A stretch of 64,000 nt of DNA, from NCBI GenBank assembly GCA_000092065.1, contig CP000584.1; one strand, given 5' to 3'. The notes below the pieces were generated by a model. The model saw only the letters and a list, made by a program, of their open reading frames with translations. It searched no databases and was not told where the DNA came from. This DNA is from Ostreococcus lucimarinus (taxonomy: Eukaryota). Below are positions 3,267 to 64,000 of the stretch, piece after piece. The first letter of the stretch is position 1; each line of letters opens with the position of its first letter. The translations under genes were made by a program, and so were the position numbers.

Positions 3267-3273
3267 CGTCGCG

Positions 3274-41300: not shown

Positions 41301-41492
41301 GTGCCTCGTCGACCCGTCTCGCGTCGCCGCGTCGCGCGTTTCCGACGCGAGACGGTTCGACGCGTTTCCGTCGCGCGTTTGCGAAGAATCCCGCGCCGTC
41401 GCCGCGTCGCGCTTTGTCGCGGTGCGACGCGCTTCCGGTCAACGCGCGTCGTCCGACCGCATCGTCGACGTCGCCCCCCTGGGGCCTCGCGA

Positions 41493-41551: not shown

Positions 41552-41771
41552 AGGCGCGCGCGCGAGTCCCGACTCGTCGACGGCGCGTGTAAACACTACT
41601 TATACCCCCCTGGTTTCGTTTCTTTCATTTACTTCACCGCATCTCTTAAATACGACGCATTCGAGCTTTTCGACGGCCACCCAGGACACGAAACCCCGTA
41701 CTCATACGAACACCACACCGCACGCGCGTGGACGCGCGCGCGCCGCACAATCAATCGCGCGCGCGCCCACC

Positions 41772-43161: not shown

Positions 43162-43404
43162 ACAACCACCACCGTAGCGCGAGAAAGGCAATATAGCCTC
43201 CGCTTTTAGCTCTTGCCGTTGCGGCGTGTTGCTCGGTGCTCGACTATTCACGCTCAAATGTAAAAAGATTCAGATTCAATTCCCTACGCGATTCCCTGCG
43301 GCGCTTGATGGATGTGTATTATTATTGCACGCATCATTCCTCGAACCACGCGTCGAGCTCTACGCTAGAAACGACTCTGCGACTCGATCGCTCGTCGCGC
43401 ATCC

Positions 43405-44241
43405 TTAGTTTTCGCGCGTCGGCAAGACCGCCTCGATGGCCGTCCACACCTCGCTCATGTCCTTTGCCGCGTCGATTTTCGCGACGACGGGAGAGTAGTG
43501 CTCCAAAATGGGCTTCGTTTGCGAGTGGTACGCTTCGAGGCGCGTCACGAGCGCTTCTTTCGTGTCATCGCTGCGCTGCTCGAGCTGCTCGCCAGTCTCG
43601 TCGTCAAACATGCGCTTCGGCTTGGCTTGCTTACCCGGGCACGCCTTCAGGCTCTTCGGCGGGTTGAACGTGGCGTGATACGAGCGACCGCTCGCCTTGT
43701 GCACCCATCGGCCGCAGATGCGCTTCTCCAAAAGCGAGTCCGGGACCTCGAGCGAGACGACGACGTCCACCTTCTCGCCGCGCTTCGCCAGCATCTCATC
43801 CAGCTTCTTCGCCTGCTCGATCGTCCGCGGGAACCCATCCAAAATGAACCCACGCGCGCAATCCTTCGCCGCGATTCGATCGCGAATGATCGCCACGACG
43901 ATGTCGTCCGTCACCAATCCCCCCGAATCCATCGCCGCCTTCGCGCGTCTCCCGACATCCGTCCCCGCCGCCACCGCCGCGCGCAGCATGTCTCCCGTCG
44001 CGAGCTGCGGCACGCCGAGCTTCTCCGTGATCTTCGGCGCTTGCGTTCCTGCGTCGCGCGCGTCCGTCGCGTCCGTCAGTCACCGCGCGCGCGTCGTTCG
44101 CGTCGCGCGTCGATCGCCGTCGTCTCGCGTCGCCGACGCTCGCGTCTCTCGCGTCTCTCGCGCACCCTTGCCCGCGCCCGGCGGTCCGAAGATGACGATC
44201 ACCGATCGCGGCGCGCCGCGCTTGCTCTGCCCGCCGCCCAT
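43405..44241 (-). CDS. adenylate kinase; two exons (~44166-44241 and 43405-44048)
   Basis: Exon 1 '[26 protein letters not shown]' (P-loop), phase-1 donor GTGCGCGAGAG. Exon 2 '[32 protein letters not shown]...[10 protein letters not shown]...[19 protein letters not shown]' (NMP-binding and LID). Confidence 0.85.
44049..44165 (-). other. spliceosomal intron (GT-AG, ~117 nt) in adenylate kinase gene
   Basis: Donor GTGCGCGAGAGACG; branch GGTGACTGACGGACG; acceptor CGACGCAG. Splits the P-loop GKG|T codon. Confidence 0.8.
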
Positions 44242-44307
44242 CGCGCGGCGTCGCGTTCCGCGGCGTGCCGACGTCTGCCGACGTCACTCGTCGACGCTGA
44301 TTACGCG

Positions 44308-45387
44308 ATGCGGCGCGCGCTGCACGTCGCGCGCGTCGCCAAGGCGAAGAACCGCGACGCCGGACGGTCGATGCACTGGCGCGTGGGTAAGGGGAGCGAG
44401 TCCGCGAACGGCGCGGGCGAGGCGACGGCGCGCGGCGGGAAAGGAAGCTCGAAGACGACGCGGTCGCAGCGGACGAACAAGAGCTACAAGGTGTACGTCA
44501 GCGGACGACCGACGATCGACGACGTCGAACGGGCGTCGAGGGGGGAGAAGACGAAGTCCATGGGCGTGGTCGAGCGCGAGGCGCCGTACAGGCTGACGCG
44601 AGACGAGCGAGAGGCGTGGGAGCGAGCGAAACGGCGAGGAGGGCTGGAGACGCGAAGCGCGAGTCGAGACGGGCTCGCGAGACGACGGTTTCCGTTGGTG
44701 AACACGCATCGGGCGTACTGCGATGCGGTGGGGATGGTGTTCGTGTGCACGGAACAAGACGTGGGGGGGGGGGAGGATTGCGTGGTGGTGGACGTGTCGA
44801 CGCTGCGGGCGAGCGAGGACGGCGACGCGCGCGCGCGGTTGAGCGAGTTGGCGATCGCGTTGGGGGCGAGCGCGGAGGATTTGTGCGGCGACGAGGAACC
44901 GCTGATGGCGCAGATGCGATACGTGGCGGCCATGGAGGGGGGGTTCGAGCGCACGGCGCTGGTGGAAGTGTTGGAGGGAGACGCCGAAGCCGAGCCGGCG
45001 CCGAGCGAGAGCGAAATCGCGGCGGCGAGAGACGCCGTCTCGGCCGCGGCGGATCGCGTGCGCGAAATGAAAGATTCAGGGAAATCGAACGCGGATGATG
45101 ACGTGAAAGCTGGCGTGCGATGCCTCCTCGAGGCGAAGGCGAAGCTGGGAGCGATGGAGGCCGCCGCGGAGAAGACGTCGGCGGCCGCGAACGAGGCCGC
45201 GGAAGTGGATCTGGAGGCTGAATTAAAACGAATCGAAGAAGCGGCTCGGAGATCACTCGTCGAGTTACCCATTCACGGTTTGCCCGAACGATATATGCGG
45301 TTCAAGTGTCCTGATCGTCCAACGGCGAAGGCGCTCTCGAAAGCCATCGCAAAGGAGGATCTCGCGCCTTTGTTGCTCGAAGTCTAG
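44308..45387 (+). CDS. hypothetical protein with WHEP-TRS-like helix-turn-helix segment
   Basis: 'SESEIAAARDAVSAAADRVREMKDSGKSNADDDVKAGVRCLLEAKAKL' resembles WHEP-TRS. Basic N-terminal region 'YKVYVSGRPTIDDVERASRGEKTK...LTRDEREAWERAKRRG'. The 5' 800 nt of the ORF-track ORF is antisense junk. Confidence 0.4.
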   Translation: MRRALHVARVAKAKNRDAGRSMHWRVGKGSESANGAGEATARGGKGSSKTTRSQRTNKSYKVYVSGRPTIDDVERASRGEKTKSMGVVEREAPYRLTRDEREAWERAKRRGGLETRSASRDGLARRRFPLVNTHRAYCDAVGMVFVCTEQDVGGGEDCVVVDVSTLRASEDGDARARLSELAIALGASAEDLCGDEEPLMAQMRYVAAMEGGFERTALVEVLEGDAEAEPAPSESEIAAARDAVSAAADRVREMKDSGKSNADDDVKAGVRCLLEAKAKLGAMEAAAEKTSAAANEAAEVDLEAELKRIEEAARRSLVELPIHGLPERYMRFKCPDRPTAKALSKAIAKEDLAPLLLEV

Positions 45388-45450: not shown

Positions 45451-48144
45451 TTACTGTATTCCTCGCGCGACTCGCTGAGGCGCGATGTCACCAGGACCGA
45501 CGCCCTTGGAGGCGTAGTACTCGCTGAAATCGAGGCGGAACAACAAGAATTGCGTGTCCACGTGCGTTTGGAGTGGCAAAAGGTTCAAGAAACCGTCCAA
45601 TGCACGCGCGTAGTCGTCGCGCAAATTTGCCAGTCGACTCTGCGCCACGGCGACCTCGTCCTTATCGATAAAATCGCTCGCATTCGACTCCTCGCCGACG
45701 TATGTCCCCCATTGCTTGTTCTTCTCGCGCTCGGCGATGCGCTCTCGCGTCGCCGCCTTCTTCGCGACGACGTCTGCCGCCATGTCGAAAAGATCAGCTG
45801 CGACTTCGCGGAACGACATCATCACCTCAAAAAGTGCGTAAAGGGTCTGCAGAACTAGCTGCGACTTTGACCCGAGCAAAGCCTTTTGAACGACGGCGTC
45901 GAGGAATACGTCGTGCGCCGCGATGATTTCATCCAAATCGGAATGCTTGGCAAACTTCTCCTCGAGCTCGACCCACGAGGTCTCCAGCACCTCGAACATG
46001 ACGTAGTACTGAAAGTTAGAAATAAAGCTGTGCATCTCCCCTCGCAATGAATGACAGCTGCGTAGCATGTCAGCCAACGCCGCGCCAGACGTGCCCCCGC
46101 CGGCGGTTTCGCTTGACAACAAATGCGCTACCGTCGGTTTCATCATCTGCCACGTCCCACAGAGCGAATGTTCCACTCGCTTCAGACGCCACAGAAAGTT
46201 GAACACGCGCAAATACTTGCTCATCGCGTGTTCGGTGAATATCGTCGTCAAAGGCTGATTTACGACGTACTCGAGCGTGAAGACATCCCATCCCACTTCT
46301 TCGTTCAAGTGCGCCATCAAACGCACGCGTAAGCGATCGAGAAAGTCTGGAGAATCCGACTGGGCGCTACTGCTGCGCACGGCTTGTTCGAGCATACCGC
46401 TGAGCTTGAAGACACTCAATGAATTCGCGGGCTGCTCCAAGCTCGGACCCATCAAGTCCATCAAGCACTCGTGCAAATCCCCCTGGCCGAGCAACAAATA
46501 GCGCTTGAGCGCTTGACAATGCTCTCCGAGCTTGAAGCGTTCGAAGAGTACGCGACGCACCGTTCCGTCCACACGCTTTGCTGTCTCGCTAATCAACGTC
46601 GTCAAACCATCTGGATTCTCAAAGTCTAGCCCTCCAGCCTTTTCCACCGCGTTCAAGACGTCCGCGCGTTCGGGCGTCCAGCTCGAGTCGTCGCAGCATC
46701 TGCGAAGAAAGTTTATGCTCTTGCCGAGGCGAAGTATAGTTTTCCCCTGTTCGCGCGTGATGAACGAGGGCAGCATGTCCTCATCGAACGCATACTTTCG
46801 GCGCCATAAATCTTTATCCGAAATCGAGTGATCAACGCTCACGAAGAACTCGCACAATGGGTCTTCGAGCTCGCCGCTCACCGTCCATCGATGCACCATG
46901 CCCAAATACGGCGTCGCGCTCGCGCTCAAAACTCTTCGTACCAACGCGGTGGATGACGGGTCGCCGTGTTGAGAGTAGTTGTACATGGCCGCCAAAGCAG
47001 CGCCTCCTCGCTTGCCGTGCGTCGCGTCGACCAAAACCGCTAGCGTCCGTAACATCTTGAGAGGATCGGCGAGCCACACGAAGAGTCGACGCAGGGTGAG
47101 GTAACTGTCGCCGCCCTTCGCCGCGCCGTCGCCTCGTTCGAGGTAAGCCACGATCGGAATCTGCGCTTGAGCTTCTAATACCGCGATCAACTTGTAGTAA
47201 CTCGCAAGCTCGCGCTGAATCGCCGCTCTGAACGCCTGCCGCGTGCTGCCGTCGCCGTCGTCGACGTCGACGCCCGCCGTCCTGCCGTCGCCGAGCGCCG
47301 CCGAAACCTTCTTAAATAACCACCCTACTTCGGTGAGGCACTTGATCAAATTTCGTCGCCCGGCCGAGACGTTCACGTTCGGTGCCAGCGCGAACGCTTG
47401 TTGGGCCGGAGAAAACTTGATGAACTCGCCGTCGATGCCTTGACACGCGTACAGCACGTCTCGCACCAATTCGCGTTCGTCGCACTCCCCGCTCGCCGCG
47501 CGTTCAATCTCCAAAGTCCTGTACGCATCCGCGCGCCGACCGACGGCGTGCAACCCGAGCGCCCCTTTCTCACCGCCCGCGAGCGCGCGCGCGGCCTCGC
47601 CATCATCCAACCGTCTCGTCGCCGCCGCCGTCGCCGCGCCCGCGCGTTCGTCTCGCGTCAACGCCTTCGCCGCCGCGTCCAAATCCAACCGCCGCATCCC
47701 TCGCGCGCTCGCGCCCACCCCCCCGCCCGCTCCCCACGCGCCCTCCGCGTCCTCCGAGATCGCCAACAGCGTCCTGAGCACTCCCGCGCGTCGCGTCGAC
47801 CCGCTCGCGTCGCGCCTTCGCGCGCGTTCGCACGCCTCCGCCGCGCGCGCCGCCGCGTCCTCCCCCCGCCTCTCTCGCACCCTTCGCACGATCGCCCGCG
47901 CCACCGCCTCGCCGTCGTCCATCGCGTCCCTCACGGCCGTTCCCTCGCCCAGCGTCGACGCGAGCACGCGCGTCGCGACCCGGCGTCCCGCGTCCGCGCG
48001 TCGCGTCGCCTCGCGATCGTCCGTCGGCATCGCGTGCGTCGGCGTCGCGTTCGTCGGCATCGCGTTCGCGAGCGTTCGCTCGACGAGCGCTCGAACGAGC
48101 GCGGCGACATCGCGCGCGTCGTCGCGCGCGCGCGCGTCGGCCAT
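45451..48144 (-). CDS. gamma-tubulin complex component (GCP2/GCP3-like, Spc97/Spc98 family)
   Basis: GRIP-type regions 'ELVRDVLYACQGIDGEFIKF', 'ASYYKLIAVLEAQAQ', 'YLLLGQGDLHECLMDLMG', 'QYYVMFEVLETSWVELEEKF'. 897 aa. Confidence 0.8.
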   Translation of the reverse strand: MADARARDDARDVAALVRALVERTLANAMPTNATPTHAMPTDDREATRRADAGRRVATRVLASTLGEGTAVRDAMDDGEAVARAIVRRVRERRGEDAAARAAEACERARRRDASGSTRRAGVLRTLLAISEDAEGAWGAGGGVGASARGMRRLDLDAAAKALTRDERAGAATAAATRRLDDGEAARALAGGEKGALGLHAVGRRADAYRTLEIERAASGECDERELVRDVLYACQGIDGEFIKFSPAQQAFALAPNVNVSAGRRNLIKCLTEVGWLFKKVSAALGDGRTAGVDVDDGDGSTRQAFRAAIQRELASYYKLIAVLEAQAQIPIVAYLERGDGAAKGGDSYLTLRRLFVWLADPLKMLRTLAVLVDATHGKRGGAALAAMYNYSQHGDPSSTALVRRVLSASATPYLGMVHRWTVSGELEDPLCEFFVSVDHSISDKDLWRRKYAFDEDMLPSFITREQGKTILRLGKSINFLRRCCDDSSWTPERADVLNAVEKAGGLDFENPDGLTTLISETAKRVDGTVRRVLFERFKLGEHCQALKRYLLLGQGDLHECLMDLMGPSLEQPANSLSVFKLSGMLEQAVRSSSAQSDSPDFLDRLRVRLMAHLNEEVGWDVFTLEYVVNQPLTTIFTEHAMSKYLRVFNFLWRLKRVEHSLCGTWQMMKPTVAHLLSSETAGGGTSGAALADMLRSCHSLRGEMHSFISNFQYYVMFEVLETSWVELEEKFAKHSDLDEIIAAHDVFLDAVVQKALLGSKSQLVLQTLYALFEVMMSFREVAADLFDMAADVVAKKAATRERIAEREKNKQWGTYVGEESNASDFIDKDEVAVAQSRLANLRDDYARALDGFLNLLPLQTHVDTQFLLFRLDFSEYYASKGVGPGDIAPQRVARGIQ

Positions 48145-48424
48145 CGTCGCGCGCGCGGTCGTCTGTCGCCGCGCGCGGGCGTCCGCGGCCGTTGACGTCG
48201 TGTTTGGTCCGTGTTTGGTCCGTGTGTGTACGAGACCGACCGTCGCGAACTCTCGTAGAGCGGCGTCCGCGAGCGGTAGTACATAGCGACGAACCGCGCG
48301 ATAAAAGCGTCCGACGACGGAGCGTTTTCGTCGCGGCGCGAGCGTTACGCGACGGACGCCGCGGCGGGCGACGGCGGGCGACGCGCGACGACGCGCGGCA
48401 GACGCCAGCGCGAGGGCGCGTGCG

Positions 48425-50392
48425 ATGGACGGTCGGCGTCTCGCGCCGGCGGACGCGCGCGAGGCGCGCGAGACGGCGGACGCGCGCGAGACGGCGTGGA
48501 AGGTGGACGTGCGCGCGCTCGAGCGAGAGGCGCGTCGACGGCGCGCGACGGACGCGCGCGGAGGCGCGGACGCGGACGACGCGGACGCGGGCGACGACGG
48601 TGGGAAGGCGGGACGCGCGACGCCGTTGGCGGTGGTGTGTCAGGACGTGCGGTACGAGGTGAGGGATCGTAAGACGGGCGCGACGACGCGGTTGCTGGAC
48701 GACGTCAGCGCGGTGTTTCCTCCGGGGGGGGCGTCGGCGCTCATGGGTCCGTCGGGGGCGGGGAAGACGACGCTGCTGGACGTCATGAGCGGGAGGAAGA
48801 CGCAGGGACGCTTGCGCGGGCGCGTCGTCGTCGGTGCCGAGCCGGCGACGAAGGCGGCGTTGAAGACGTGCGCGGCGTACGTCGAGCAGTTTGATTGCTT
48901 GCTCGCGTCGTTGACGGTGCGAGAAACGTTGATGTATCAAGCCGAGTTAAAGCGAGGCGCGGAAGGTTTCGACGCCAAGGCGCGCGAGGAGCAAGTGAAT
49001 CGATTGATCGAAGACTTGCAGTTGGAAAAGTGCGCCGACGTCGTCGTCGGCAGCGCTTTGTCGCGAGGGATTTCCGGCGGGCAAGCAAAGCGCACGAACA
49101 TCGGCATAAGTTTGGTCACTCGTCCTCGTATTTTGTTCTTGGACGAGCCCACGAGCGGATTGGATTCGAAAACTTCGTACGATTTGATGCGAGTCATTCG
49201 AAAATTTTGCGACACCGCCGGAGTCACGGTCATCGCCACCATTCACTCGCCGAGCTCGGAGGCGTTTCGTCAATTCGATCGTCTGTTGATGCTGAAGAAT
49301 GGCAAAGTCACCTACGCGGGTCCATTATTCGGCGAAGAGGGCGCAGAGACGTACTTTTATTCGCTCGGGTTTTACTTTGATCCGAACGATAACTTTGCGG
49401 ATTTCTTAATCGCCACCGCGGGCGACGATTCGACGGATTTTGCCAGAGAGTTTACGGCGAGTTTTCATCACAAGCGTAATCGCGACGAAGTGCGCAAGTA
49501 CGTGCGAGAAGTGGTGAATCGGCGGGAAGCAGGCGACACGCGATCTCTGCTGCTCGCAAACGCCCCAAAACCTGTCGGTTTTGCGAGCGCCGTGCGCACG
49601 CTGTTAAAGTACCGCACGTCTCGAAATTACCGCGACGCGCAATTCGTCGGCGCGCGCTGCGCCGGGCACCTCATATTCGCCGCCGTCATGGCGACCATGT
49701 ACGCGGGCCAAGGAAAGGTCATGTCACTCGACGCCCAAATCAACGTCTCTAACATGCTGTTTATGAACAACGTCCTCCCCGCGTTCGCTGCGAGTGGATA
49801 CTTGCCTTCAATCTTGATGGAACGCCCACTTCTGTACCGCGAGCTCGACGACGGATGTTACCCACTCTTGGCGTACATCGCGTACAAAATCATCGAAGAA
49901 GCACTCGTGGCGCTCATTGTCTCACTCGTTGCGACTGCGATCTTATACAACGCCGCAGGTCTGCGAGGCAACTTCTTCGTCGATTGGCTCGCGTACTTTG
50001 GCATGCAACAATGCGGCGGCGCCGTCGCCTACCTCTGCGCCGCCGTCGCCCGCGACGTCGACGCCGCCAACGCCATCTTACCCGTGTACAACGTCCTTCA
50101 GGTCCTTTTCGCCGGTGTTTTACTCAACATCAACGACGTCCCGCGCGCTTGGACCTGGTGGCCACCGACGTTATTCGTTCGATACGGCTGGAAGGCGCAA
50201 ATGCTCAACCACTTCGCTCGCGTCGAGCCTCCCGTCTTTCTCGCCGACGACGGCTCCCTCGTCGGCGTCACCTCGTATTACGACGTCACCGGCACGACGT
50301 CGTCTAATCTCGGTTTCGTGTACTTGCTCTGGGCGTGTTGGCTCGTCGTCGCCGCCGTCTGCACCGCGAGCGTGCGCCACCAAAATCGTTAG
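48425..50392 (+). CDS. ABC transporter, G-family (white/brown-type half transporter)
   Basis: NBD first: Walker A 'GPSGAGKTTLLDV', signature 'ISGGQAKRTNIGISL', Walker B 'ILFLDEPTSGLD'. Then ABC2-type membrane domain with 6 TM segments. Confidence 0.85.
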   Translation: MDGRRLAPADAREARETADARETAWKVDVRALEREARRRRATDARGGADADDADAGDDGGKAGRATPLAVVCQDVRYEVRDRKTGATTRLLDDVSAVFPPGGASALMGPSGAGKTTLLDVMSGRKTQGRLRGRVVVGAEPATKAALKTCAAYVEQFDCLLASLTVRETLMYQAELKRGAEGFDAKAREEQVNRLIEDLQLEKCADVVVGSALSRGISGGQAKRTNIGISLVTRPRILFLDEPTSGLDSKTSYDLMRVIRKFCDTAGVTVIATIHSPSSEAFRQFDRLLMLKNGKVTYAGPLFGEEGAETYFYSLGFYFDPNDNFADFLIATAGDDSTDFAREFTASFHHKRNRDEVRKYVREVVNRREAGDTRSLLLANAPKPVGFASAVRTLLKYRTSRNYRDAQFVGARCAGHLIFAAVMATMYAGQGKVMSLDAQINVSNMLFMNNVLPAFAASGYLPSILMERPLLYRELDDGCYPLLAYIAYKIIEEALVALIVSLVATAILYNAAGLRGNFFVDWLAYFGMQQCGGAVAYLCAAVARDVDAANAILPVYNVLQVLFAGVLLNINDVPRAWTWWPPTLFVRYGWKAQMLNHFARVEPPVFLADDGSLVGVTSYYDVTGTTSSNLGFVYLLWACWLVVAAVCTASVRHQNR

Positions 50393-50398
50393 CGCCAA

Positions 50399-52369
50399 AT
50401 GCAAAGCCAAGTTGTCCCCAGTCCTCACCTCGCGAACATGCGATCGCGCGCGTCGCCGTCGTCGCGCGTCGCCGCACCGCGCGCGTCGGCGAAGCGCCAC
50501 CGCGACGTTCGACGCACCGACGCGCGCGCGTCGCGCGCGTCGGCGCCGGCGCCGCGCGACGACGATGAAGACGTCGACGCGTCGACGTTCGATGCGTCGA
50601 CGTTCGACGCGTCGCGTCGCGCGCTGCTCGCGCTCGCCGCGTCGACGACGACGGTGATGGTCGGTGCGGACGTCGCGCGCGCGTCGCCCGTGCGGGCGTC
50701 GATGCGGATGGCGGATCGAGGGCCGGTGGCGCGCGCGGCGCCGCGACCGCCGTGCGGGCCGGGATACGCGACGCTGCGCGACGCGGGAACGTATCGAGGA
50801 TTGGCCACGGTCGATCGCGAGGGACGCGGTCTGCGAGGGTTGTTGCCACCGAACGTCGTCGAGGACGACGTGGAGGTGCGCCGGGCGAGGGAAGCGCTCG
50901 GGCAGTGCGACGGCGCGTTCGAGTCGTACAAGCAGTTGGTGGCGCTGCAGACGACGGACGAGCGGACTTTTTATAAATTGTTGCGATCGGACACCGAGCG
51001 GTTGCTGCCGCTGTTGTACACGCCCACGGTCGGCGAGGCGTGTCTGAGATTCGGGACGCTGATACAACGACCGATGGGGGTGTGGGTAAGCTCGGACGAC
51101 GCGGGGAACGTGCGGGAATTGATGCGCAATTGGCCGCGCGACGACGTGAAAATCGCCGTGATCACGGATGGGGAGAGAATTTTAGGGCTCGGAGATCAAG
51201 GAGCGAACGGGATGGGAATTAGCGCGGGAAAGAGCATGGTGTACGCCGCATGTGGAGTGCCGCCGAGTGCGCTGTTGCCGATTCAGATTGACACCGGTAC
51301 AAACAACAAGACGTTGCTCGACGATCCGTTGTACATCGGGCTCAAACGCGAGCGCGACCGCTCCCAGGCCTACGACGCGCTCTTGGATGAAGTCGTCGTT
51401 TCGATTCGCGAGCGATTCGGTCCGAACACGATCATACACTGGGAAGACTTCGCGCCGAGGAACGCGTTCAGGGTATTGAAAAAGTATTACTCCGCGCCCG
51501 ATGTCGTGACGTACAATGACGACATCCAAGGCACCGCAGCGGTTACGGTGAGCGGGATATTGGCGTCGGTGCGAGCGCTAGAGAGAGGTGGTGACGTCAC
51601 TCAGCAGCGCGTATTGTTCTTTGGCGCTGGACAGGCGAATATCGGCGCCGCTGAACTCTTCGTCCTCGCGTTGACGAAGCGCGGCGTCGCGGAAGCCGAC
51701 GCTAGGAAACGGGTGTGGCTGTTTGATTCAAAAGGCCTCGTCGTGCGCTCGCGCGCGTCGCAGCTGAGTGATGACAAATTGCCTTTTGCACAAGACGCGA
51801 GGGAGGAAACTGACCTCGCATCAGCGATCGAAAGCATCAAGCCGACGGTGTTGGTCGGCGCCGCCGCGGTGCCCGGGGCGTTTACTCAAAAAGTCGTCAA
51901 GTCGATGAGCAAACTCAACGACCAACCGATCATTTTCGCGCTCTCCAACCCGACGTCCAAGGCTGAGTGCACCGCCGAGCAGGCGTACGCGTGGAGCAAC
52001 GGCCGAGCGATATTCGCGAGCGGCACCCGATTTCCGCCGGTGCGATTCTCGGCTGAAAAGACGTTCGCCCCCGGATTCGCCAACAACGCCTTCATCTTCC
52101 CACCCATCGCCCTCGCCACCATCGTCAGCGGCGCGAAACAAGTCACTCCAGACATGTTTCTCACCGCCGCCGAAGCCTTGGCCGAATCCGTCGACGCCAA
52201 CCTCTTCGCCGTCGGCGCCGTCTACCCGCCCGTCGATCGCATCGCCTCCTCCGCCGTCGCCGTCGCCGCGCGCGTCGCTCGCGCCGTCGACCCATCCATC
52301 GATCTCGACACCTGGCGCGCCCGCGTCCAGGACTACATCGCATCCAACGATTTATTCGATAGCCTGTAA
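50399..52369 (+). CDS. NAD(P)-dependent malic enzyme
   Basis: 'LYTPTVGEAC', 'GLGDQGANGMGISAGKSMVYAACGGV', 'FNDDIQGTAAVTVSGILASV', 'VLFFGAGQANIGAAEL'. ~135-aa Arg/Ser/Ala-rich N-terminal extension (organellar presequence-like). Start uncertain: ATG 50399 lies only 7 bp after the ABCG stop. Confidence 0.85.
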   Translation: MQSQVVPSPHLANMRSRASPSSRVAAPRASAKRHRDVRRTDARASRASAPAPRDDDEDVDASTFDASTFDASRRALLALAASTTTVMVGADVARASPVRASMRMADRGPVARAAPRPPCGPGYATLRDAGTYRGLATVDREGRGLRGLLPPNVVEDDVEVRRAREALGQCDGAFESYKQLVALQTTDERTFYKLLRSDTERLLPLLYTPTVGEACLRFGTLIQRPMGVWVSSDDAGNVRELMRNWPRDDVKIAVITDGERILGLGDQGANGMGISAGKSMVYAACGVPPSALLPIQIDTGTNNKTLLDDPLYIGLKRERDRSQAYDALLDEVVVSIRERFGPNTIIHWEDFAPRNAFRVLKKYYSAPDVVTYNDDIQGTAAVTVSGILASVRALERGGDVTQQRVLFFGAGQANIGAAELFVLALTKRGVAEADARKRVWLFDSKGLVVRSRASQLSDDKLPFAQDAREETDLASAIESIKPTVLVGAAAVPGAFTQKVVKSMSKLNDQPIIFALSNPTSKAECTAEQAYAWSNGRAIFASGTRFPPVRFSAEKTFAPGFANNAFIFPPIALATIVSGAKQVTPDMFLTAAEALAESVDANLFAVGAVYPPVDRIASSAVAVAARVARAVDPSIDLDTWRARVQDYIASNDLFDSL

Positions 52370-52522
52370 TCGTGCTTTCGCGCTCGCGTTCTCCCCTCGC
52401 CCTTCGTCGACGCGCGTCCCGTCCCGCTCGCGGGTTATCCACTCACTCCGGTCGCCATCGACGTCGCGTCCAAGCCGCGTCGCGCCGCACTTCACCGCGC
52501 GTTCGCGACCGGCGCGGCGACG

Positions 52523-52545
52523 ATGCGCGCGGGACCGCGCGCGAC

Positions 52546-52584
<39 letters not shown>

Positions 52585-54169
52585 GCGGCGTCGGCGCGCG
52601 CGCGTCGACGCGACGCCGAGCCCGCGCGGCGACGTCGACGCGAGCTCGAGCGCGCGCGAGCGCGCGACGGCGCGCGACGACGGCGTCGTGCGCACGCGCG
52701 TCGTGCGCGAGCGAGGGAGCGAGACGCCGAGAGAGGCGCGCGCGAGCGCGAGCGCGGAGGGGAGGAGGACGACGAATCGCGAGGCGCCGCGCGGCGCGAC
52801 GGGCGGCGGCGCGCGAGCGCGACGACGACGCGCGACGACGACGAAGGAGACGCGCGATGGCGTCGTCGACGCGACGATGACGACAGAAGGCGCGCCAGGG
52901 AGCGAACGCGGCGCTGGAGGGAGGGATCGACAGACGAAGAAGGAACGCGCGAGGACGCGCTGGGCGGACGCGCGGTCGCGAGCGAGAGGGACGTCGATGG
53001 GTCAAGATGAACGTATGAGCGTCGAGGACGAGCGAAATCTCGGGCGGGCGATACAGGCGTTGTTGCGAATCGAGCGCGAGGCGGAGATTTTGCGAGATGA
53101 GGCGGCGGCGACGAGGATTCAAGCGACGGAGGCGCTGGGCGCGGTCGAGGCGTTGGCGCTGCGAGAGAAAGCGGCCAAGCAGTCCAAGCGTCTGTTCGAA
53201 GACACGCTCGCGTTGCGATTAGAGTACGACAGCCCGGCGGCGATGAGAGCTGCGGAGCGCGAGGGGAAGATGGCGCGGAAGAGGCTCGTGACGGCGAACA
53301 TGGCCTTTGCAGCGAGCATCGCGCGAAAGCTGTACGATAGAATTCCCGCCATGGAAAAGGCGGGGATGAGTAGGCAAGACATGGTTCACGAGGGCGCCAC
53401 CGGTCTCGTTCGCGCGAGTGAGCTATTCGATCCTTCAAAAGGATTCAGATTCACGACGTACGCTCACGCATGGGTTCGTCAGGCCATCGTACGCGGCGTG
53501 CACGCCAACGGCAGAACGATTCGCGTCCCTTCGCACGCTCACGTTCTCAAGAAGGCGGCTTACGAAAAGCAGCTCGAGATGCAAAGCGAACTCGGTCGCA
53601 GCGCGACGAAAGAAGAAATTGCCGACTCTTCGTCGCGCTTCACCGTGGAGATGCTGGAGAAGTTCAAGGATTTGAGCATGGATCCTCTCAGCCTGGACGC
53701 GAACGCCTCGCAGGAAACGGACGAACTCGATCTCGCAAGCCCCGACGACGCCGCCGAACTCGGTCCATCCGATGCCGTGGCGCGGGAGATTGAGAGGGAT
53801 TTCCTTCGAAACGAGATCAGAGCGAGTTTGGACCGACTACCCGCGCCGCAAGCGTACGTCCTCCGACGCCGTTTCGGTCTCATCGGCGACGGTCCGATGA
53901 CGCTCGCCGAAATCGGCGCCGCGCTCAACAAGACCGGTGAAGGTGTCCGCTACCTCGAGAAGAAAGCGCTCGAAAACCTCAAACGACAAGATGGTATCAC
54001 TGTCGATGGCGTCACCGTCTCGCTCGCACAGCATTTGGATACGTCCAACGACGCGAGGGCGTCGATGGCGACGGCGCCCGCGAAACCAAAACGCAGACGC
54101 GCCAAGACCAAGACCACGACGATCGCGCCGTCCGCGCTCGATCTCGTGCGCTCGATCGATTTAGCATAG
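52523..54169 (+). CDS. sigma-70-type RNA polymerase sigma factor (nuclear-encoded, plastid)
   Basis: Region 2 'MVHEGATGLVRASELFDPSKGFRFTTYAHAWVRQAIVRGV'. Region 3/4 'LTLAEIGAALNKTGEGVRYLEKKALENLKR'. Low-complexity Arg-rich N-terminus with (GV)5 from a (ggcgtc)5 microsatellite at ~52552-52582. Confidence 0.8.
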
Positions 54170-57497: not shown

Positions 57498-58999
57498 TTA
57501 ATCATCCATAGTGTTGTACATGGAGAAGTCTGGCATCGATGCCGATGATACCAGACCCTTCTTCATTTTTCGCATAGATGGCGGCGCGCGCAAGCCCTTG
57601 TCAAGGCCAAGCTCAGCGATTTTATCGCGTTCTTCTTCGGCTTCGCGTGCGTCGTCGTCGTCCGACTGGCCCGCGGCTTCTCGAATCTTTGATAAATCCG
57701 GCACAGAGCTAACCTTGACGAACTTGCCCTTGACTCGCGGGCGGTTGTCAGCGCATGCTTTGCGCGATTGATACCGAATCACCTTGTTGAAGTTTCGATT
57801 CTTCCTCTTTTCCTTCCATCGTTTCAATCGCTCGAGACGCGTCTGCGGCTGCGGTAACCCGGCGTACGTATCCGATCCCGAAGGTGGGCCTTCTGGAATC
57901 GAGCGTAACGCGTCAGCCATCGCAGAATGTCCATTCGCATCCCCTGCGCCGCTCGATGCGACCGTCTGATTGTCCAAATCGCTCTCGGGTTCGCGTTTGA
58001 CAGCCACCGCGCTCAGCTTCCCCGCGAGAGATTCAAAACCCATATCGCTAGACTCAGGCGATGGCGAGCCGAACGCGCCGTACGATGGATTCAATTCTAA
58101 AAACCGCACCGCAGAATCGTCCAAAATTGGACCTAAAAAGCCGCTCGACGAGGCATACTCGCCGACCCGACGTAACGCCTCGATTTCGCTCTTCGACATC
58201 CCCACCGAGTCGCTATACTTGCTTCCCGATCGCTCCCCGTCGATTTCTCGATTCACCACCCCATCCTTCGCCGCATCTTCATCATCGAGCGGGTCCCTCA
58301 AGAAGCTCTCCGGATCGATCCCATCAGCGTCAAGCTCGCCCAAATTCTCGTCCCAAAACGCTCCGTCCAACGTTTCCACCGGAAACGACGACGACGGCAT
58401 CATGGGATTACTCAAATACTCATCGCATATCCCGATCACATCATCCGTCGTCACCTCAACGTCATCGCCGTCGCCGTACGCATCGCTCATCCGTCTCGAA
58501 TCCGCATCCTCCGCGCCGTGCGCGCCGACCCCTCGCCCGTTCGTCCCGAGCGCCGTGCGCTCGTGCTTACTCGCGATCGCGTTCGCCGCGTGCACGCGCG
58601 CATCGCACGCATCGCACAGGTACGCCTGCGTCACCGTCGTTCGCACCACCGTCAGTCGTCGCGCGCGTCTTCGCGCGCGCTTTCGTCGCCGCGCGTCGTC
58701 CGAACGTCCCCGTTCGTCGTCGTCGTCTTATCGTTATCCGAAGCGCCATCCTCTCCGACCGCGCCTCGCCGCCGCGCGTCGCGCGCGCGCGTCCCGCGCG
58801 TCGTCGACGCGTCGCGAGCGCGTCGTCTCCCGGTCACCGCGCGCGCCGTCGCGCGCACCTCGTCCTGCGCGCAGTACCAACTCGCCGCGCGCCGCGCGCC
58901 TTCGGGACACGATTCGCACGCGGCGCCCGTCGCGTCGCGCGTCGCGTCCTCGGCGCGCGCGCGATCGGACGCGCTCGCGCGCGCGTCGCTCGGCGCCAT
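57498..58999 (-). CDS. CONSTANS-like B-box / CCT-domain protein; two exons (58859-58999, 57498-58625)
   Basis: Exon 1 'MAPS...CESCPEGARRAASWYCAQDE' and exon 2 'AYLCDACDARVHAANAIASKHERTAL' together reconstitute one B-box (compare CO 'CTVYCRADSAYLCAGCDARIHAAN...HERV'). C-terminal CCT domain 'RLERLKRWKEKRKNRNFNKVIRYQSRKACADNRPRVKGKFVK'. Confidence 0.8.
58626..58858 (-). other. spliceosomal intron (GT-AG, 233 nt) splitting the B-box
   Basis: Donor GTGCGCGCGACG after GAC GAG; branch GACGACTGACGGTGG; acceptor GTGACGCAG before GCG TAC CTG TGC. Confidence 0.75.
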
Positions 59000-59329
59000 G
59001 CGTCGCGCGAGCGCCGTGCGCGCGCGTGTGCGCGGCGCGCGCGGCGCGCGCGCGCGTAACGACTCGAGACCCGGGAGTCGGGCATCGGCGCGCGGTCCGA
59101 CCGACCGCCGAGCCGAGTCATCAACTCAATCCATCGCGGCGAACCAGGATGCGCCGCCTGCACTCGTCGCCGCGCGCGCCGACGCCGACGAAGCGTAGCG
59201 AACGTCGTGAACGTCGTTAACGTCGCGCTCCGCGCCCCCGCGCGCCGTCGTCGCGGCCCCGGTTCGACGTCGCGACGCGCGACGCGCGCGAACAGTTGAC
59301 GGTTAAGAAAAAGTCGCGCTTTGGCGGCG

Positions 59330-62300
59330 ATGCGCGCCCGGTTCGCGCGCGGCGCGTCGATGTCGGCGCTTCTGCTCGCGCTGTGCGCTTTGGCGTCGCT
59401 CTTAGGCGTCGCTCGGGGCGGTGGTTCGCCGTCGCCGTCCCCCGTGCACTGTTCGGCGAGGTGGATCGACGTCAACAAAGGGGGCTGCCCAAGCTGCGGA
59501 CCAGGCACGTATAGTAAGCGATACCAAATCGATCGCGATCCCGCGTACGATGGACGACGGTGTCCTCATGTCAACGGGCATGTGTCTTATGGACATGATT
59601 GCGAGGCACCGCCATGTCCGCCGCCGCCGCCATCGCCGCCGCCGCCGTCGCCACCGCCGCCGCCGCCGGGACAGTTTGTTCCCGTGCAGGTATCCATCAA
59701 CGATCCCGTGCCGAGAGTGTCAGATGCGTACGACTTTCACATTCTCACCTCACATCCTTCGTGCGATTCACAAAACGATTGTTTTGAGAGTCACATCGAG
59801 ACGGACGTGAGCGAGCATCACGTCGGACTCAGGTGCGACGTCACCGTGCAAAAGAAGGACCAAGTTTGTGCGACATTCGGTCGTCACATGCCTTGCAGGC
59901 TGTGGAATGACTTTTATCCAACAACTTTAACCCTCACGGATGAGCATGGTGACATCGTCGAAGGCGATTACGTCATTGAGTATGAATGCTACTTTGAACT
60001 CGCAAACGGCGAGCTCGTACCTGAGCCGACCAAGGTGAAGAAGACGCTGCACGAGTTCAGCGTATCCAAAGGGTGCGATTTGAAAATGAATTTGAATCGA
60101 GATTCCAAAGCAGAGCTCGCGGCGTATCTCCTCAGTGGCGCCGATGAATTCAATATCGCTGACTGCTCGAGTTTGAAGAGTATTTACGCCGCGAAGGAGG
60201 CCGTGTTCCGTATTTTCGATTCAAACCCGACAGATGGCCGACTCGATCACGAAGAAATCCTCATCGGTGTTGAGGCACACAGCATGGATACACAGATAGT
60301 GAATCATTGGAAGGACATCGTCGACGCTGAGGGTGGCGATGGACTGTTCCTCACACTTTCGAACTTCATGTCGGCAGACATCGCGCCTCGCGGTTGTCAA
60401 TCCGGCGCCGGTGACGTCGTGACGTTCACGGAGGCGACGTATCCAACGAGTGATCCTGGACGTGAAACGGGATCCAGGCAATGCGGAGAGATGGCGGGAT
60501 CTATGAAGACCACGTGGTCGTTTCCTCGATCAATGCAACTCGGCGATTGGTCGTGCGTATACATCGACGGGCTTTTGTACAGTCAATTGCTCGCCCAAAC
60601 GAGCCGAAACGCCGTATCGATGCAGAACAGCGTGACAGATATTCGCCCTGTCATTGGCTCTTTTCATGATGCAGAGCAATCTCTCGCTGCGCATTTCACG
60701 TTCGCAGGCGTGTCAAACGCAAGGCTGATTTCTTCAGAATCGCCGCGGGCGGATGGCCAAGAAGTGGTTCCAACCCTCTCCATCGATGATACGTATACAG
60801 GTAGTCTGCGAGTCTTCACGGCTTCTCAACACGGTAAACACGGGGCGTGCCTGAACAGCTGCCAAGGTTGTACCTTCCATTCGTACAAGTACATTGGGGA
60901 ACCGTTCAAGAATGATTTTGCCGTGTCGATGCAAATATTCATTCCTACACAGCTTTCGAGCAATTCTGGCTTTCGGAAGAAGTCGGAACCTCTCATGAGC
61001 TTCACTTCAGATGCATCTGGTAGTATGCAGCACAGCATCAAGTTACGATTGGGCACGGCACTCTCGAAGTTTTCACTTCAATTTATACATGAAAAAGTAA
61101 ACAGCGTGACGGGTCATCGAGATGAGCTATCAGAGCCCATTCCTCTGGGTGCGTTTGGACGCTGGACGTCAATTGGATTTTCTTTCCACCCAAAAGATGG
61201 TCTCACGTTGTACAGGTTCAGCGTTGAGGGAGGTAGGGTAACACATGAAATCAAGGTGCCGAGCAATAACGATGAGTGGAAATCGAGACTGCGAGACACG
61301 TTGCATTTGATGCACCGTCGTGAATTTTTCAAAGAGAACCGAATAGAATACGACGATCTTCGCGTGTACACTGGCCGAGTAAAGAACAACACATTCATAG
61401 ACGCGTATAAGTGCGACGCGTTGGGTGCTCAGTGTGCACCTCGAGCACACGCAACGCCAAACTCACGTCGCGTCGTATGTGTCATGCTGGATGTCCACGA
61501 CAGTAGTGGAGGAGACGCCCGTGCGCCGTATTCCTGCACCGGTGCCCTGTACTACGACGGCGGCGCCATTGAAGTGCGCGCGAAAATGGATCTCACTGGA
61601 GTCGCATTCGAATTCCGCGACACGGCTTGGCACGAATCATCTTTTGAAATCTTGCGACGCACGCACGATCCAAGTGGCGATAACGCGTTTGATACAGTCG
61701 TACTCGTTGACGGTGGTTTGAACGGCTGTGCGTCGATGTTTTCGTCGATTACGTATCTCGACCGAGAGGCTGGTCAGCAGCCCAACTCTCGCTGGCAGTA
61801 CAAGATCAAAACAAAGACGGACGATGTCGATGTAAGCTTTTTGTCGCTCACTACTCATTTTAAAACGCCTTGGATTGGTCAAATTGTGGGCGAAGTGATG
61901 GCCGGTAAGTCGGTTGTTCCTGTTGGCGAAGTCCGCATTTGCGCAGACTTCGTGAAGCCCAACGGTACTTTTCTGATGTATCGCAGTCACAATCACTCTA
62001 ATCTGGCTTTGCACATGCCCGTCGTTCACACATCTAATCTCACTATCTCAGCAGAACAACAGGCGCATCGAGCTACGGACGGCTTACACTTGAAGCCTGA
62101 CTCGATTCGTGTCGCAAGAGGACAGTATTTGCGCGTCAACCTCGACTATTGGAGCGCAATACAAGAGGTCGAAGTGTGCACCGCAACCGGAGAGAACAAT
62201 TTCAGAACTTTCGTGCGGGAGTTCGATCCGGGATACTCTGTGAATCACGGTCACGAGTGCAAATTACGAGAAACTAACGCAACCCAAACTTTCAGCGCAT

Positions 62301-64000
62301 CGCGCGTGACTTGCTTCTTCTTCACCTGTCGGGGCTCAAAGCTTACGACATTGCATGGTCAGTTCGTAACCGCAGCCGTCGAAGAAGGCGACGACGTGAG
62401 AATGACGCAAATTCGTGTTGTTGGTCAGCGTGGCAGATGCACGTTCACGGCGATAAGTGATGACGATGGGCGCTATGCAATCGATGTACTCGATCGCTCC
62501 GGGAACGTCCCCGTCAAGGCGAATATGCTCATCGGCGCGTATAAGGAAGAAGTTTTTGGTGAAGAATTCGAAGTTCCCCTCCTGGATACGAGCGATTCAG
62601 ATGGCGATGATGATTCGCTAAACGTTCCGACGCGAGTGTTACTCGTACTTCGTCGAAAGAACAGTTCGCTTGCGGCGCGTCTCGGGCATGAAGTCCCGGA
62701 TTACAGCAGCTCCTACTACGACGGCGAAACGCATCAGTATCTGGATCAACATGGATATAGTCCACCGTATGGCAGCTCCTACTACGACGGCGAAACGCAT
62801 CAGTATCCGGATCAACATGGATACAGTCCACCGTTCGGCAACACGCCATATGTGCACACTATTTACGATAACGCCTACGATTCAGGCGTTCCTGCCGCCA
62901 AAGTAGAGTTCCAAAGTTTGACGAATTTACGTCTGGAAAACACAACTCTTATGAAGAAAGATGGAGTTGCTGATGGTTGGAATGCAGGGGGGTCCTCGAA
63001 TCAGTCAATGTTTAATGTCACGGGTCGTTTTACTGGAATGGACGCGGTTGAGGGTATCAGGGTCGAATGCTCCTGCGATGATGGCGAATATGTCGTTGGT
63101 TTGAGCTACGCAGAGCACATAGCTAACTTTTCCAAAGCAGCGACCGAATTTGCCATTCACTGTCGTGGTAAAGGCTATGAGCCAGCCATCATTTCAGGTG
63201 GTCGCTCTTACGCAAATTCAAATAACTATCGGATGGCCATGGAGACGAGACCATCGCATCACATGACGGATCTATACGATGTGTACCAGTCAACTGACAT
63301 CACATCTTCGCCACCCATCTCCACGGCGAATGATTTCTCATATGCAGCAGCGCAGAGGCGACTACTGGCTCCAACGAGTTCGTACCCTGCAAGAAGCCCG
63401 ACGTCAAACGAGTATCCAACGACGAGCCCGACGCCAAGCAGTCAATTATTGAACTCTTATCCTCAGTCGTATGATGCGCAAACGAATGAGTATCCTCAGT
63501 CGTATGATGCGACGACGTCTACTTATTTTCCACCCTACCACATCGATGACTATCTCGATCGAGGCTATCGTTCAAACATGTGTATGAAGAAGACATTCAC
63601 CATTAAACTTACACGCAGTGGGCGTGTTTTGTTTTATGAAACGCAAGGCCATTGGCTGTACGATCATCCGGTGCAGCATGAAAATTTTCACCATACTCAG
63701 ACGTGGCAAACTGGTGGACAGTCGCCGCCGTACGGCTACACGGAGCAAACGCCACCGTACGGCTACGCGGAGCAAACGCCGCCGTACTCTGCGCGCGACA
63801 AGTCTTCCCTGGGCGCACATGCCGACGTTTCGCACACGGGCCAAGCTTTGCATGAGTACCATGAACCTGCTCAACTCATAGTACCGGTCGCGTACGCAGA
63901 AAGAGCACACAGCCCCTTGTTTGTGCGAATGGTGGTAATTTCACAAAATGTGACGCTGAGCGACGCCGACATACGTTGGACAGTGCCGACTCCCTCACCG
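59330..64000 (+). CDS. very large secreted Cys/Tyr-rich surface protein with extensin-like Ser-Pro4 linker and tandem repeats (3' end beyond window)
   Basis: Frame opens after TGA 59297, ATG 59330. I found no stop to the window end (>1550 codons); it is absent from the ORF track only because it has no stop in-window. Signal peptide 'MRARFARGASMSALLLALCALASLLGVARG'. 'PPCPPPPPSPPPPSPPPPPPG'. Repeats 'SSYYDGETHQY[LP]DQHGYSPP[YF]G' x2, 'TPPYGYTEQ' x2, 'YPQSYDA' x2. Many Cys. Markedly lower GC and A/T-ending codons than neighbouring genes. Confidence 0.6.
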   Translation, partial: MRARFARGASMSALLLALCALASLLGVARGGGSPSPSPVHCSARWIDVNKGGCPSCGPGTYSKRYQIDRDPAYDGRRCPHVNGHVSYGHDCEAPPCPPPPPSPPPPSPPPPPPGQFVPVQVSINDPVPRVSDAYDFHILTSHPSCDSQNDCFESHIETDVSEHHVGLRCDVTVQKKDQVCATFGRHMPCRLWNDFYPTTLTLTDEHGDIVEGDYVIEYECYFELANGELVPEPTKVKKTLHEFSVSKGCDLKMNLNRDSKAELAAYLLSGADEFNIADCSSLKSIYAAKEAVFRIFDSNPTDGRLDHEEILIGVEAHSMDTQIVNHWKDIVDAEGGDGLFLTLSNFMSADIAPRGCQSGAGDVVTFTEATYPTSDPGRETGSRQCGEMAGSMKTTWSFPRSMQLGDWSCVYIDGLLYSQLLAQTSRNAVSMQNSVTDIRPVIGSFHDAEQSLAAHFTFAGVSNARLISSESPRADGQEVVPTLSIDDTYTGSLRVFTASQHGKHGACLNSCQGCTFHSYKYIGEPFKNDFAVSMQIFIPTQLSSNSGFRKKSEPLMSFTSDASGSMQHSIKLRLGTALSKFSLQFIHEKVNSVTGHRDELSEPIPLGAFGRWTSIGFSFHPKDGLTLYRFSVEGGRVTHEIKVPSNNDEWKSRLRDTLHLMHRREFFKENRIEYDDLRVYTGRVKNNTFIDAYKCDALGAQCAPRAHATPNSRRVVCVMLDVHDSSGGDARAPYSCTGALYYDGGAIEVRAKMDLTGVAFEFRDTAWHESSFEILRRTHDPSGDNAFDTVVLVDGGLNGCASMFSSITYLDREAGQQPNSRWQYKIKTKTDDVDVSFLSLTTHFKTPWIGQIVGEVMAGKSVVPVGEVRICADFVKPNGTFLMYRSHNHSNLALHMPVVHTSNLTISAEQQAHRATDGLHLKPDSIRVARGQYLRVNLDYWSAIQEVEVCTATGENNFRTFVREFDPGYSVNHGHECKLRETNATQTFSASRVTCFFFTCRGSKLTTLHGQFVTAAVEEGDDVRMTQIRVVGQRGRCTFTAISDDDGRYAIDVLDRSGNVPVKANMLIGAYKEEVFGEEFEVPLLDTSDSDGDDDSLNVPTRVLLVLRRKNSSLAARLGHEVPDYSSSYYDGETHQYLDQHGYSPPYGSSYYDGETHQYPDQHGYSPPFGNTPYVHTIYDNAYDSGVPAAKVEFQSLTNLRLENTTLMKKDGVADGWNAGGSSNQSMFNVTGRFTGMDAVEGIRVECSCDDGEYVVGLSYAEHIANFSKAATEFAIHCRGKGYEPAIISGGRSYANSNNYRMAMETRPSHHMTDLYDVYQSTDITSSPPISTANDFSYAAAQRRLLAPTSSYPARSPTSNEYPTTSPTPSSQLLNSYPQSYDAQTNEYPQSYDATTSTYFPPYHIDDYLDRGYRSNMCMKKTFTIKLTRSGRVLFYETQGHWLYDHPVQHENFHHTQTWQTGGQSPPYGYTEQTPPYGYAEQTPPYSARDKSSLGAHADVSHTGQALHEYHEPAQLIVPVAYAERAHSPLFVRMVVISQNVTLSDADIRWTVPTPSP
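62705..62830 (+). repeat. 63-nt tandem duplication inside the large ORF (encodes SSYYDGETHQY.DQHGYSPP.G twice)
   Basis: 'agcagctcctactacgacggcgaaacgcatcagtat[c/ct]ggatcaacatggata[t/c]agtccaccgt[a/t][t/c]ggc' repeated head-to-tail with 4 substitutions. Also a 27-nt duplication at ~63725-63780 and a 21-nt one at ~63460-63520. Confidence 0.8.

Follow-up and report, generated by a model that had tools for sequence, protein, structure and literature searches.

A stop-free reading frame in Ostreococcus lucimarinus as the probable 5′ part of a native gene for a giant, membrane-anchored modular surface protein

The Chlamydomonas proteins SAG1/SAD1, MAR1 and FUS1 are surface proteins of the green lineage, very large or single-pass, that combine binding modules with Ser-Pro-rich spacers. 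Adhesion glycoproteins of this kind are anchored in the membrane at the C-terminus and are lineage-specific and fast-evolving (PMC8777248, PMC4362204); SAG1, for instance, is synthesized as a precursor whose C-terminal part is integral to the membrane (PMC4362204). By analogy, they appear to be the nearest functional counterparts of a gene that resembles them in these respects and starts at position 59330 of a 64000-nucleotide (nt) stretch of the Ostreococcus lucimarinus genome (contig CP000584.1, assembly GCA_000092065.1; the whole stretch is referred to here as the window, and positions are counted from its first letter). The open reading frame (ORF) at 59330–64000, on the + strand like all parts of the gene described below, probably covers the first 39% of a native nuclear gene, whose product would be a membrane-anchored, modular cell-surface protein, with an inferred role in adhesion/recognition or in a coat. 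Neither the gene nor its family turned up in searches of the literature.

Translation of the + strand places the start at the ATG at 59330, the first after an in-frame TGA at 59297, and the frame that it opens has no stop up to 64000 (1557 codons). The remaining five frames contain 38–73 stops each over 59330–64000, and, given the local base composition, a run this long without a stop has a probability of ~1e-30. The original prediction of a giant gene, open in this frame to the window end, was thus borne out: no overlooked in-frame stop splits the ORF within 59330–64000, and the gene is real and larger than the part visible in the window (~12 kb). Extension past 64000, which the prediction had proposed as a check, was achieved through near-identical public metagenome contigs and gave one ORF of ~4009 codons (labels of the form L010 denote contigs from near and more distant relatives, and labels of the form P0049 denote database proteins). 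Window positions 59488–64000 are 98.8% identical at the nucleotide level to L010, whose position 1 corresponds to window 59488. In L009, L010 and L011, independent short-read contigs retrieved by a metagenome scan with the last of the six ORF pieces of contig L004, a single frame remains open up to its stop (L010:2–11872, 3956 codons). The product therefore has ~53 + 3956 = ~4009 residues, encoded by an intronless gene of ~12.03 kb.

L004 itself, a long-read contig that is 97% identical, runs 7 kb further and is split into six ORFs; over L004 10001–21425, the breaks are an in-frame stop at 11425 and frameshifts at ~14870, ~16296, ~17689 and ~19893. Since the ORF is continuous in L009, L010 and L011, this stop and these frameshifts are assembly errors. 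Near-identical contigs stop or go astray at a proline-coding repeat just beyond 64000, and two candidate extensions were rejected: L001, which ends in residual Nextera adapter (14629–14665; CTGTCTCTTATACACATCT), and L005, which past the proline-coding repeat continues as a chimeric join to unrelated high-GC DNA (~7825–8076). Because that join is chimeric, the stop in L005 and the 1615-residue database protein P0014 are artefacts. A contig search from the upstream CCT gene yielded no longer contig.

The two ends of the protein suggest how it sits at the cell surface. The N-terminus, MRARFARGASMSALLLALCALASLLGVARG (residues 1–30; 59330–59419), has the charged, hydrophobic and small-residue layout typical of a signal peptide, in agreement with the prediction, which had gone on to call the protein secreted. 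The L010 ORF, however, ends in ...LAIVVFAICALVMIIKKRIALPADESELREREAFDKVDIPRYGSSL: one strongly hydrophobic segment, the only one in that ORF (residues 3903–3932 in L010-ORF numbering, which runs 53 behind that of the whole protein), then KKR, a basic stop-transfer signal, and a tail of ~30 residues. Because the full gene ends in this putative transmembrane anchor, the product reads as a type I membrane protein and not as a freely secreted one. The cytoplasmic tails of the L010 ORF and of P0049, P0050, P0051, P0053 and P0054 share Y-G-[AS]-x-[LV], a conserved motif that lies at their very end or close to it and may be a sorting or docking signal.

Between these ends, the ectodomain is, to judge by a predicted structure, a string of β-rich lectin-like modules (a ConA/LamG-like jelly roll and galactose-binding-like sandwiches); proline and Tyr/Pro-rich low-complexity segments separate these modules, EF-hand-like elements and Ig-like domains. 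The structure is an AlphaFold2 model of residues 116–1130 from 25 aligned sequences, with a predicted local distance difference test score (pLDDT) of 72.6 and a predicted template modeling score of 0.73; it is disordered beyond residue ~1075. Ahead of the modeled part lie a putative six-Cys TSP1-like module (residues 39–96; 59444–59617; CSARW...CPSCGPG...C), which scores below threshold against Pfam TSP1_spondin (16.8 bits, E 0.008, cut-off 41), and the first proline spacer, PPCPPPPPSPPPPSPPPPPPG (residues 94–114; 59609–59671), which is encoded by a simple repeat of the (CCG)n type. The equivalent of the six-Cys module in L002, the contig of a distant relative, is likewise sub-threshold for TSP1_spondin (21.6 bits, E 2.6e-4). 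Next come a family-conserved, Cys-containing region modeled at low confidence (residues 116–254; 59675–60091; pLDDT ~45–60) and a predicted helical domain (residues 255–350; 60092–60379; helices at model residues 145–233). The latter carries an EF-hand-like loop, FDSNPTDGRLDHEE (~60212–60253), where the family profile matches the EF-hands of hippocalcin and neurocalcin (E 4e-5) and which is one residue longer than the canonical 12.

The remainder of the model is β-rich. A region at residues 365–485 (60422–60784; pLDDT ~70–85) is followed by the predicted lectin jelly roll (residues 519–693; 60884–61408; C-terminal ...DDLRVYTGRVKNNTFIDAY), which superimposes on ConA-like lectin/Laminin G members; the family profile also matches TeNT Hc weakly (E 6e-3). 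The β-sandwich at residues 713–875 (61466–61954; SRRVVC...LYYDG.AI...FRDT.W.ESSFE) is the most conserved segment in the window, and a second such region spans residues 898–1071 (62021–62542; model strands at pLDDT 72–90, with a weak CarboxypepD_reg match at E 0.09). In the predicted structure, the β-sandwich of the window protein matches the galactose-binding-like fold (F-type lectin/CBM32/discoidin). Pfam searches of the window protein returned no family at E ≤ 0.01 and neither an EF-hand nor a Laminin_G match, and its separate segments gave noise or sub-threshold hits, with none to Laminin_G at E ≤ 10. A PDB sequence search yielded only a match to UBR4, which was discarded as proline-run noise, and self-BLAST of the protein found no internal domain repeats.

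The model gives way to an acidic linker, predicted to be disordered (residues 1077–1126; 62558–62707; pLDDT 30–47). Family-wide similarity ends near this linker, and matches to the family representatives stop at query residue ~1020. Beyond it, a lineage-specific region (residues 1192–1375; 62903–63454), conserved among close relatives only, consists of a globular-looking part (VEFQSL...GGRSYANSN) and then Ser/Pro/Thr/Tyr-rich low complexity; no Pfam or PDB match was found for it. A reading by eye of residues 1192–1545 as a jelly roll broken up by Tyr-rich loops, akin to what comes after the second proline spacer, is set aside. The second proline spacer begins at 63977–64000 and continues in L010 for ~55 residues of SPPP/SPPPP/SPPPPPP past the window end. 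A third, of ~29 residues, follows, and then an EF-hand (Pfam E 1e-3) and, proximal to the membrane, two Ig-like repeats with a weak Big_13 match.

The window protein appears, by sequence comparison, to belong to an uncharacterized family of giant type I surface proteins of 2.8–4.0 thousand residues. An exhaustive HMMER search gathered 109 representatives at E ≤ 1e-3; a word-index search had given three relatives. Full-length relatives have 2846–3847 residues and align over ~950 residues at 31–37% identity (phmmer E 4e-157 to 1e-90), starting from query residue ~3–7. All are metagenomic, the few named ones are called ‘hypothetical protein’, and Pfam found no domain in those scanned. P0049, P0050, P0051, P0053 and P0054 each have one C-terminal transmembrane helix and a tail reading YGATL, YGATV, YGAVV, YGSVV or similar (YGSSL in the window species). 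These five full-length members also have a hydrophobic N-terminus, save P0050, where it is not in the database start, and P0054, which is truncated and starts with V. Since P0049–P0054 contain no proline runs, the proline spacers are a feature of the lineage and not of the family. Among 15 listed members of the 24 in the 90% cluster of P0001, lengths range from 231 to 1615 residues. Database entries for this family are mostly fragments because gene calls split its members, as with the six ORFs of L004.

The distant relative on L002, a 98-kb contig, is collinear with both the in-window and the downstream parts of the gene and has, ahead of its TSP1-like module and proline spacer, four F5/8 type C domains (Pfam E 1e-83). 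The L002 gene is interrupted twice, by a gap of ~460 nt between its ORFs a and b (12700–13300) and by a 4-nt overlap of ORFs b and c (18413–18416); the window species is continuous where b and c overlap. These interruptions may be frameshift errors, an intron or a real split. The family core reads ...VVHDPPGG...GRPGDVILGGG.ELVY...WLPRKPTSY, and the corresponding stretch of L010 (7799–9901; residues ~2650–3350 of the full protein) bears the invariant or near-invariant motifs VVHDPPGG, R..SS.D....GR.GD..LGGG.E..Y, C-L and W.PR.PT.Y. Searches with this core gave no Pfam, PDB or confident fold match, and it may be an undescribed domain with an activity of its own.

The gene is under purifying selection. 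Compared with its orthologue in the sister lineage L014 (82% amino acid identity), the ratio of non-synonymous to synonymous substitution rates (dN/dS) is 0.28 overall, 0.33–0.40 over residues 1–800 and down to 0.16 in the core, so the frame is a constrained coding sequence. Between two close strains, the corresponding ratio for polymorphisms (pN/pS) is 0.61 overall, 1.06 over the first 800 residues and 0.33 over the last 800, with small counts (12.5 synonymous versus 45.5 non-synonymous differences). This pattern is consistent with a distal end that is relaxed or diversifying.

Taken as a membrane-anchored surface protein, the product could work as follows. Hydroxylation and O-glycosylation of the kind known from green-algal hydroxyproline-rich glycoproteins would turn its Ser-Pro(n) stretches into stiff polyproline-II spacers. 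Raised by these spacers to a great distance from the plasma membrane, the distal TSP1-like and lectin-like modules could bind to glycans or proteins carried by other cells or by particles. The protein would then be a cell-surface adhesion/recognition receptor or a coat component, with a membrane-distal end (the N-terminal modules and the repeat copy number) that may evolve fast and a membrane-proximal core that may be conserved. Several points weigh against this reading. The putative signal peptide was identified by reading the sequence and the putative transmembrane helix by a hydropathy scan; what lies past the window end, 61% of the gene, was read in contigs of 98.8% identity instead of the record to which the window belongs; TSP1 and the EF-hand are assigned below or near threshold; the predicted lectin-like folds are common scaffolds and no proof of sugar binding; and hydroxylation and glycosylation of the spacers are assumed from other green algae.

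A more specific function may be considered, namely that of a gamete-recognition or agglutinin-type protein analogous in function to the SAG1/SAD1, FUS1 and MAR1 class. The giant size, proline spacers, Ig-like membrane-proximal domains, single transmembrane helix and short tail would all fit, as would the fast distal end (pN/pS 1.06), the swapped N-terminal modules and the repeat polymorphism; such traits are common to Chlamydomonas adhesion proteins (PMC8777248). However, sequence homology to SAG1/SAD1, FUS1 or MAR1 is not shown, the gene lies outside any evident low-GC mating-type-like region, and the raised pN/pS may reflect relaxed constraint together with the small counts. We therefore consider a role in gamete recognition distinctly unlikely.

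Alternatively, the protein might be a surface molecule shaped by virus pressure, either as an adsorption receptor for prasinoviruses or as a decoy or glycocalyx shield against them. The strain-level length polymorphism, the fast distal end and the large ectodomain, exposed on a cell that is probably naked, could be read in this way, and virus resistance in Ostreococcus is reportedly tied to changes in the surface and in glycosylation. The literature found, however, puts the resistance loci on the small outlier chromosome and not on a gene such as this one. Furthermore, dN/dS against L014 is below 0.4 everywhere, so no sustained positive selection is detected at this resolution. Shaping by viruses thus seems improbable as the explanation of this gene.

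The Tyr-rich repeats and proline blocks bear on a third alternative, in which the product is a structural extracellular protein (of a scale, wall or adhesive plaque) whose Tyr-Gly repeats and SPPPP blocks are held together by Tyr/DOPA cross-linking. SP(3–7) runs are present, Tyr is enriched locally, and the Y-x-Y of PPYGY resembles the isodityrosine sites of extensins. The prediction had described perfect tandem repeats of 63, 27 and 21 nt encoding YYDGETHQY, PPYGYTEQ and YPQSYDA. The repeats exist, although they are imperfect, number about two copies each and have periods of 66, 27 and 33 nt. Tandem Repeats Finder reports 2.0 copies of the 66-nt repeat (96% match, 62706–62834) and 2.4 of the 27-nt repeat (92% match, 63723–63787), which encode two 22-residue units, SSYYDGETHQY(L/P)DQHGYSPP(Y/F)G (62708–62839), and 2.4 nine-residue units, (S/T)PPYGY(T/A)EQ (63722–63802). 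YPQSYDA belongs to an 11-residue (33-nt) unit found, on reading the sequence, in two copies, (S/E)YPQSYDA(Q/T)T(N/S) (63455–63520). As to the supposed Cys/Tyr richness, Tyr is concentrated locally (4.6% overall, with 33 of 72 in residues 1101–1500), and the protein is not rich in Cys, at 2.3% overall (36 residues in the window part, 12 of them within the first 200).

Copy number differs even between near relatives: the 22-residue unit occurs twice in the window and once in L004 and L014, the 11-residue unit twice in the window, three times in L009 and five times in L004, and the PPYGY block, one copy of which reads PPYGD in L010, lies wholly inside a 53-residue deletion in L014. Over window positions 62706–63802 and their equivalents in L004, L009, L010 and L014, the three units thus range over 1–2, 2–5 and 0–2.4 copies in strains that are 97–99% identical, and this variation offers a natural length marker for population typing. 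Because copy number varies and one block is missing in the sister lineage, the Tyr-rich repeats are not a conserved cross-linking core, and the Tyr/DOPA-like cross-linking motifs that had been proposed are not supported. The Tyr motifs are, moreover, located away from the proline runs and are not conserved, which speaks against extensin membership. Of the extensin-like SPPPP linker, the motif itself stands at residues 94–114, whereas the extensin identity does not: the three Ser-Pro(n) stretches make up ~105 of 4009 residues (~2.6%) of what appears to be a type I protein. That anchorage, the absence of proline runs from five full-length members and the end of family similarity before the Tyr-rich repeats also count against a structural role. 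Ostreococcus-like algae, to which the window GC of 59% and the gene content would point, are not known to have scales or a wall. We find a cross-linked structural protein very improbable; from the proposed cell-surface, scale or adhesive protein, an extracellular modular protein of the surface or adhesive kind is what fits, and the extensin-like secreted form does not.

A fourth alternative concerns origin: the composition of the gene might reflect transfer from a prasinovirus or giant virus, or a place in a low-GC outlier region of the chromosome. The window part has a GC content of 0.525 and a third-position GC content (GC3) of 0.558, the lowest of the window ORFs measured, and low-GC outlier chromosome regions are known from Mamiellales. 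The drop toward ~50% GC was therefore correctly noticed in the prediction, although codons do not mostly end in A or T: G/C-ending codons are still the majority. The whole L010 ORF is alike (GC 0.521, GC3 0.552, flat throughout). Flanking DNA is not: GC is 0.60–0.66 upstream and 0.57–0.74 immediately downstream of the stop, against a window mean of 59.2%, and upstream genes have a GC3 of 0.66–0.84. The drop starts and stops with the gene, and a GC of 0.52 confined to one ORF is not what a Mamiellales low-GC outlier region looks like.

Other long genes of the window come close to the same composition, which the prediction had named as grounds against itself: GC3 is 0.58 in the BEACH ORF, 0.60 in an AMP-binding/ankyrin gene and 0.61 in the telomerase reverse transcriptase gene (TERT), and 0.66–0.84 in short genes. 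Among 14 window genes, GC3 falls as ORF length rises (Spearman rho −0.64, p 0.014). In relative synonymous codon usage, the highest correlations are those with two native genes, BEACH (r 0.85) and a histone acetyltransferase (HAT; r 0.83), and the distance in dinucleotide signature is smallest to BEACH, HAT, TERT and the AMP-binding/ankyrin gene (87–103), with a short ORF at 39804 next (105). In IMG/VR viral contigs, protein and core-profile searches gave no tblastn-confirmed relative, and none was found in 185,579 prokaryotic species genomes (one per species). The orthologue in the sister lineage and the more distant relative sit among eukaryote-like gene neighborhoods. Since the flanks are normal, codon usage is native-like and GC3 tracks ORF length, the GC dip appears to go with a native gene that is long and weakly biased, and a viral or otherwise foreign origin, or a regional outlier, is exceedingly improbable. 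In O. tauri, codon bias increases with expression and host genes are GC-rich (PMC3673656); low GC3 here could likewise reflect the weak codon bias of a long, probably weakly expressed gene.

The gene shares the window with other long, intronless genes of eukaryotic type. The BEACH/neurobeachin-type ORF (15588–24512, +; 2974 residues; Beach, PH_BEACH, WD40, LamG_3 and DUF4704) is intronless and, with a GC3 nearly as low, is the best internal control for low GC3 in long native genes. TERT (35018–38497, +), a p300/CBP-type HAT with TAZ, PHD, KAT11 and ZZ domains (28091–31426, −) and a sigma-70-type factor (52523–54169, +), a plastid hallmark in a eukaryote, are each a single ORF, and together they mark a compact, intron-poor photosynthetic eukaryote. 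The window also contains the AMP-binding/ankyrin gene, a malic enzyme gene, for which the closest named relatives are from streptophytes, and the CCT-domain gene, and its GC and gene density would suit a green picoalga of the Mamiellophyceae; a search within its 64 kb found no paralogue of the present gene. Within the 330 nt before the start codon, 59000–59290 is very GC-rich, with (CG)n-like and 7–17-nt tandem repeats, and is overlapped by spurious-looking ORFs on both strands (e.g., 58834–59508, −). At 31000–34000, 41000–45000 and 47000–53000, 1-kb GC peaks of 0.69–0.76 alternate with values of 0.55–0.60, and many ORFs overlap on both strands; such peaks and overlaps are usual where coding DNA has a high GC, and ORF lists made mechanically cannot be relied on there.

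Green picoalgae of this kind have some of the smallest genomes of free-living eukaryotes, and it is at their surface that they meet attacking viruses, grazers and, in mating that has yet to be observed, each other. With ~4000 residues and predicted lectin-like modules, the surface protein encoded by this conserved 12-kb gene is a concrete candidate for a part in these interactions. The family is easily overlooked, as its public gene calls are fragmented (into six ORFs, or by short-read truncation at proline-coding repeats) and it carries no annotation. For genome analysis, a sharp gene-sized GC dip in this genome would mark a long, weakly biased native gene and not foreign DNA. It is conceivable, though unlikely as a whole, that a Mamiellophyceae-wide class of giant surface recognition receptors exists, in which ~0.1% of a minimal genome is spent on one protein. 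Exchangeable distal modules (TSP1-like, discoidin or other N-termini) and slippage-prone Tyr/Pro repeats would set the specificity of cell–cell contact (in cryptic sex) or of virus adsorption, and the invariant HDPPGG/GRPGD-GGG-E-Y core would adopt a fold not seen before and have an activity of its own, e.g., autoprocessing or membrane-proximal signaling.

Compared with described systems, the product is nothing unusual in kind, as giant modular surface glycoproteins are familiar molecules, but the family to which it belongs is undescribed and has an unexplained conserved core. Individual folds recur in otherwise distant proteins: at 6–21% identity, the resemblance to the N-subdomain of clostridial neurotoxin Hc, GH43 AbnA domain 4, calreticulin and pentraxin (ConA-like) and to F-type lectins and CBM32 (galactose-binding-like) would indicate a shared fold and not family membership. 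Extensins have the same SPPPP/SPPPPPP glycomodule and cross-link sites like PPYGY; however, they are small to medium-sized secreted wall proteins made mostly of repeats, whereas here such repeats amount to ~2.6% of a putatively membrane-anchored chain of 4009 residues and are absent from most members of the family. The adhesion receptors of metazoans and apicomplexans (thrombospondin, neurexin/Caspr and CCp/LCCL proteins) similarly combine TSP1, discoidin, LamG and EF-hand module kinds on one chain, with a signal peptide and often a single transmembrane anchor, and L002 has four bona fide F5/8 type C domains. Only these discoidin domains of L002 pass Pfam, however, while the modules of the window protein are recognized by predicted fold alone, and the present family is unique in its order of domains and in its conserved core. 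Of the Chlamydomonas adhesion glycoproteins, FUS1 comes near in its Ig-like ectodomains, one transmembrane helix and short tail. The agglutinins differ in having a long PPSPX shaft where the present protein has three short SP(n) spacers, and this protein adds to the common plan an HDPPGG core and a putative lectin-like array that have no described counterpart among the Chlamydomonas proteins; the likeness is one of large size, binding modules, Ser-Pro-rich spacers and a C-terminal anchor, and not of demonstrated sequence similarity.

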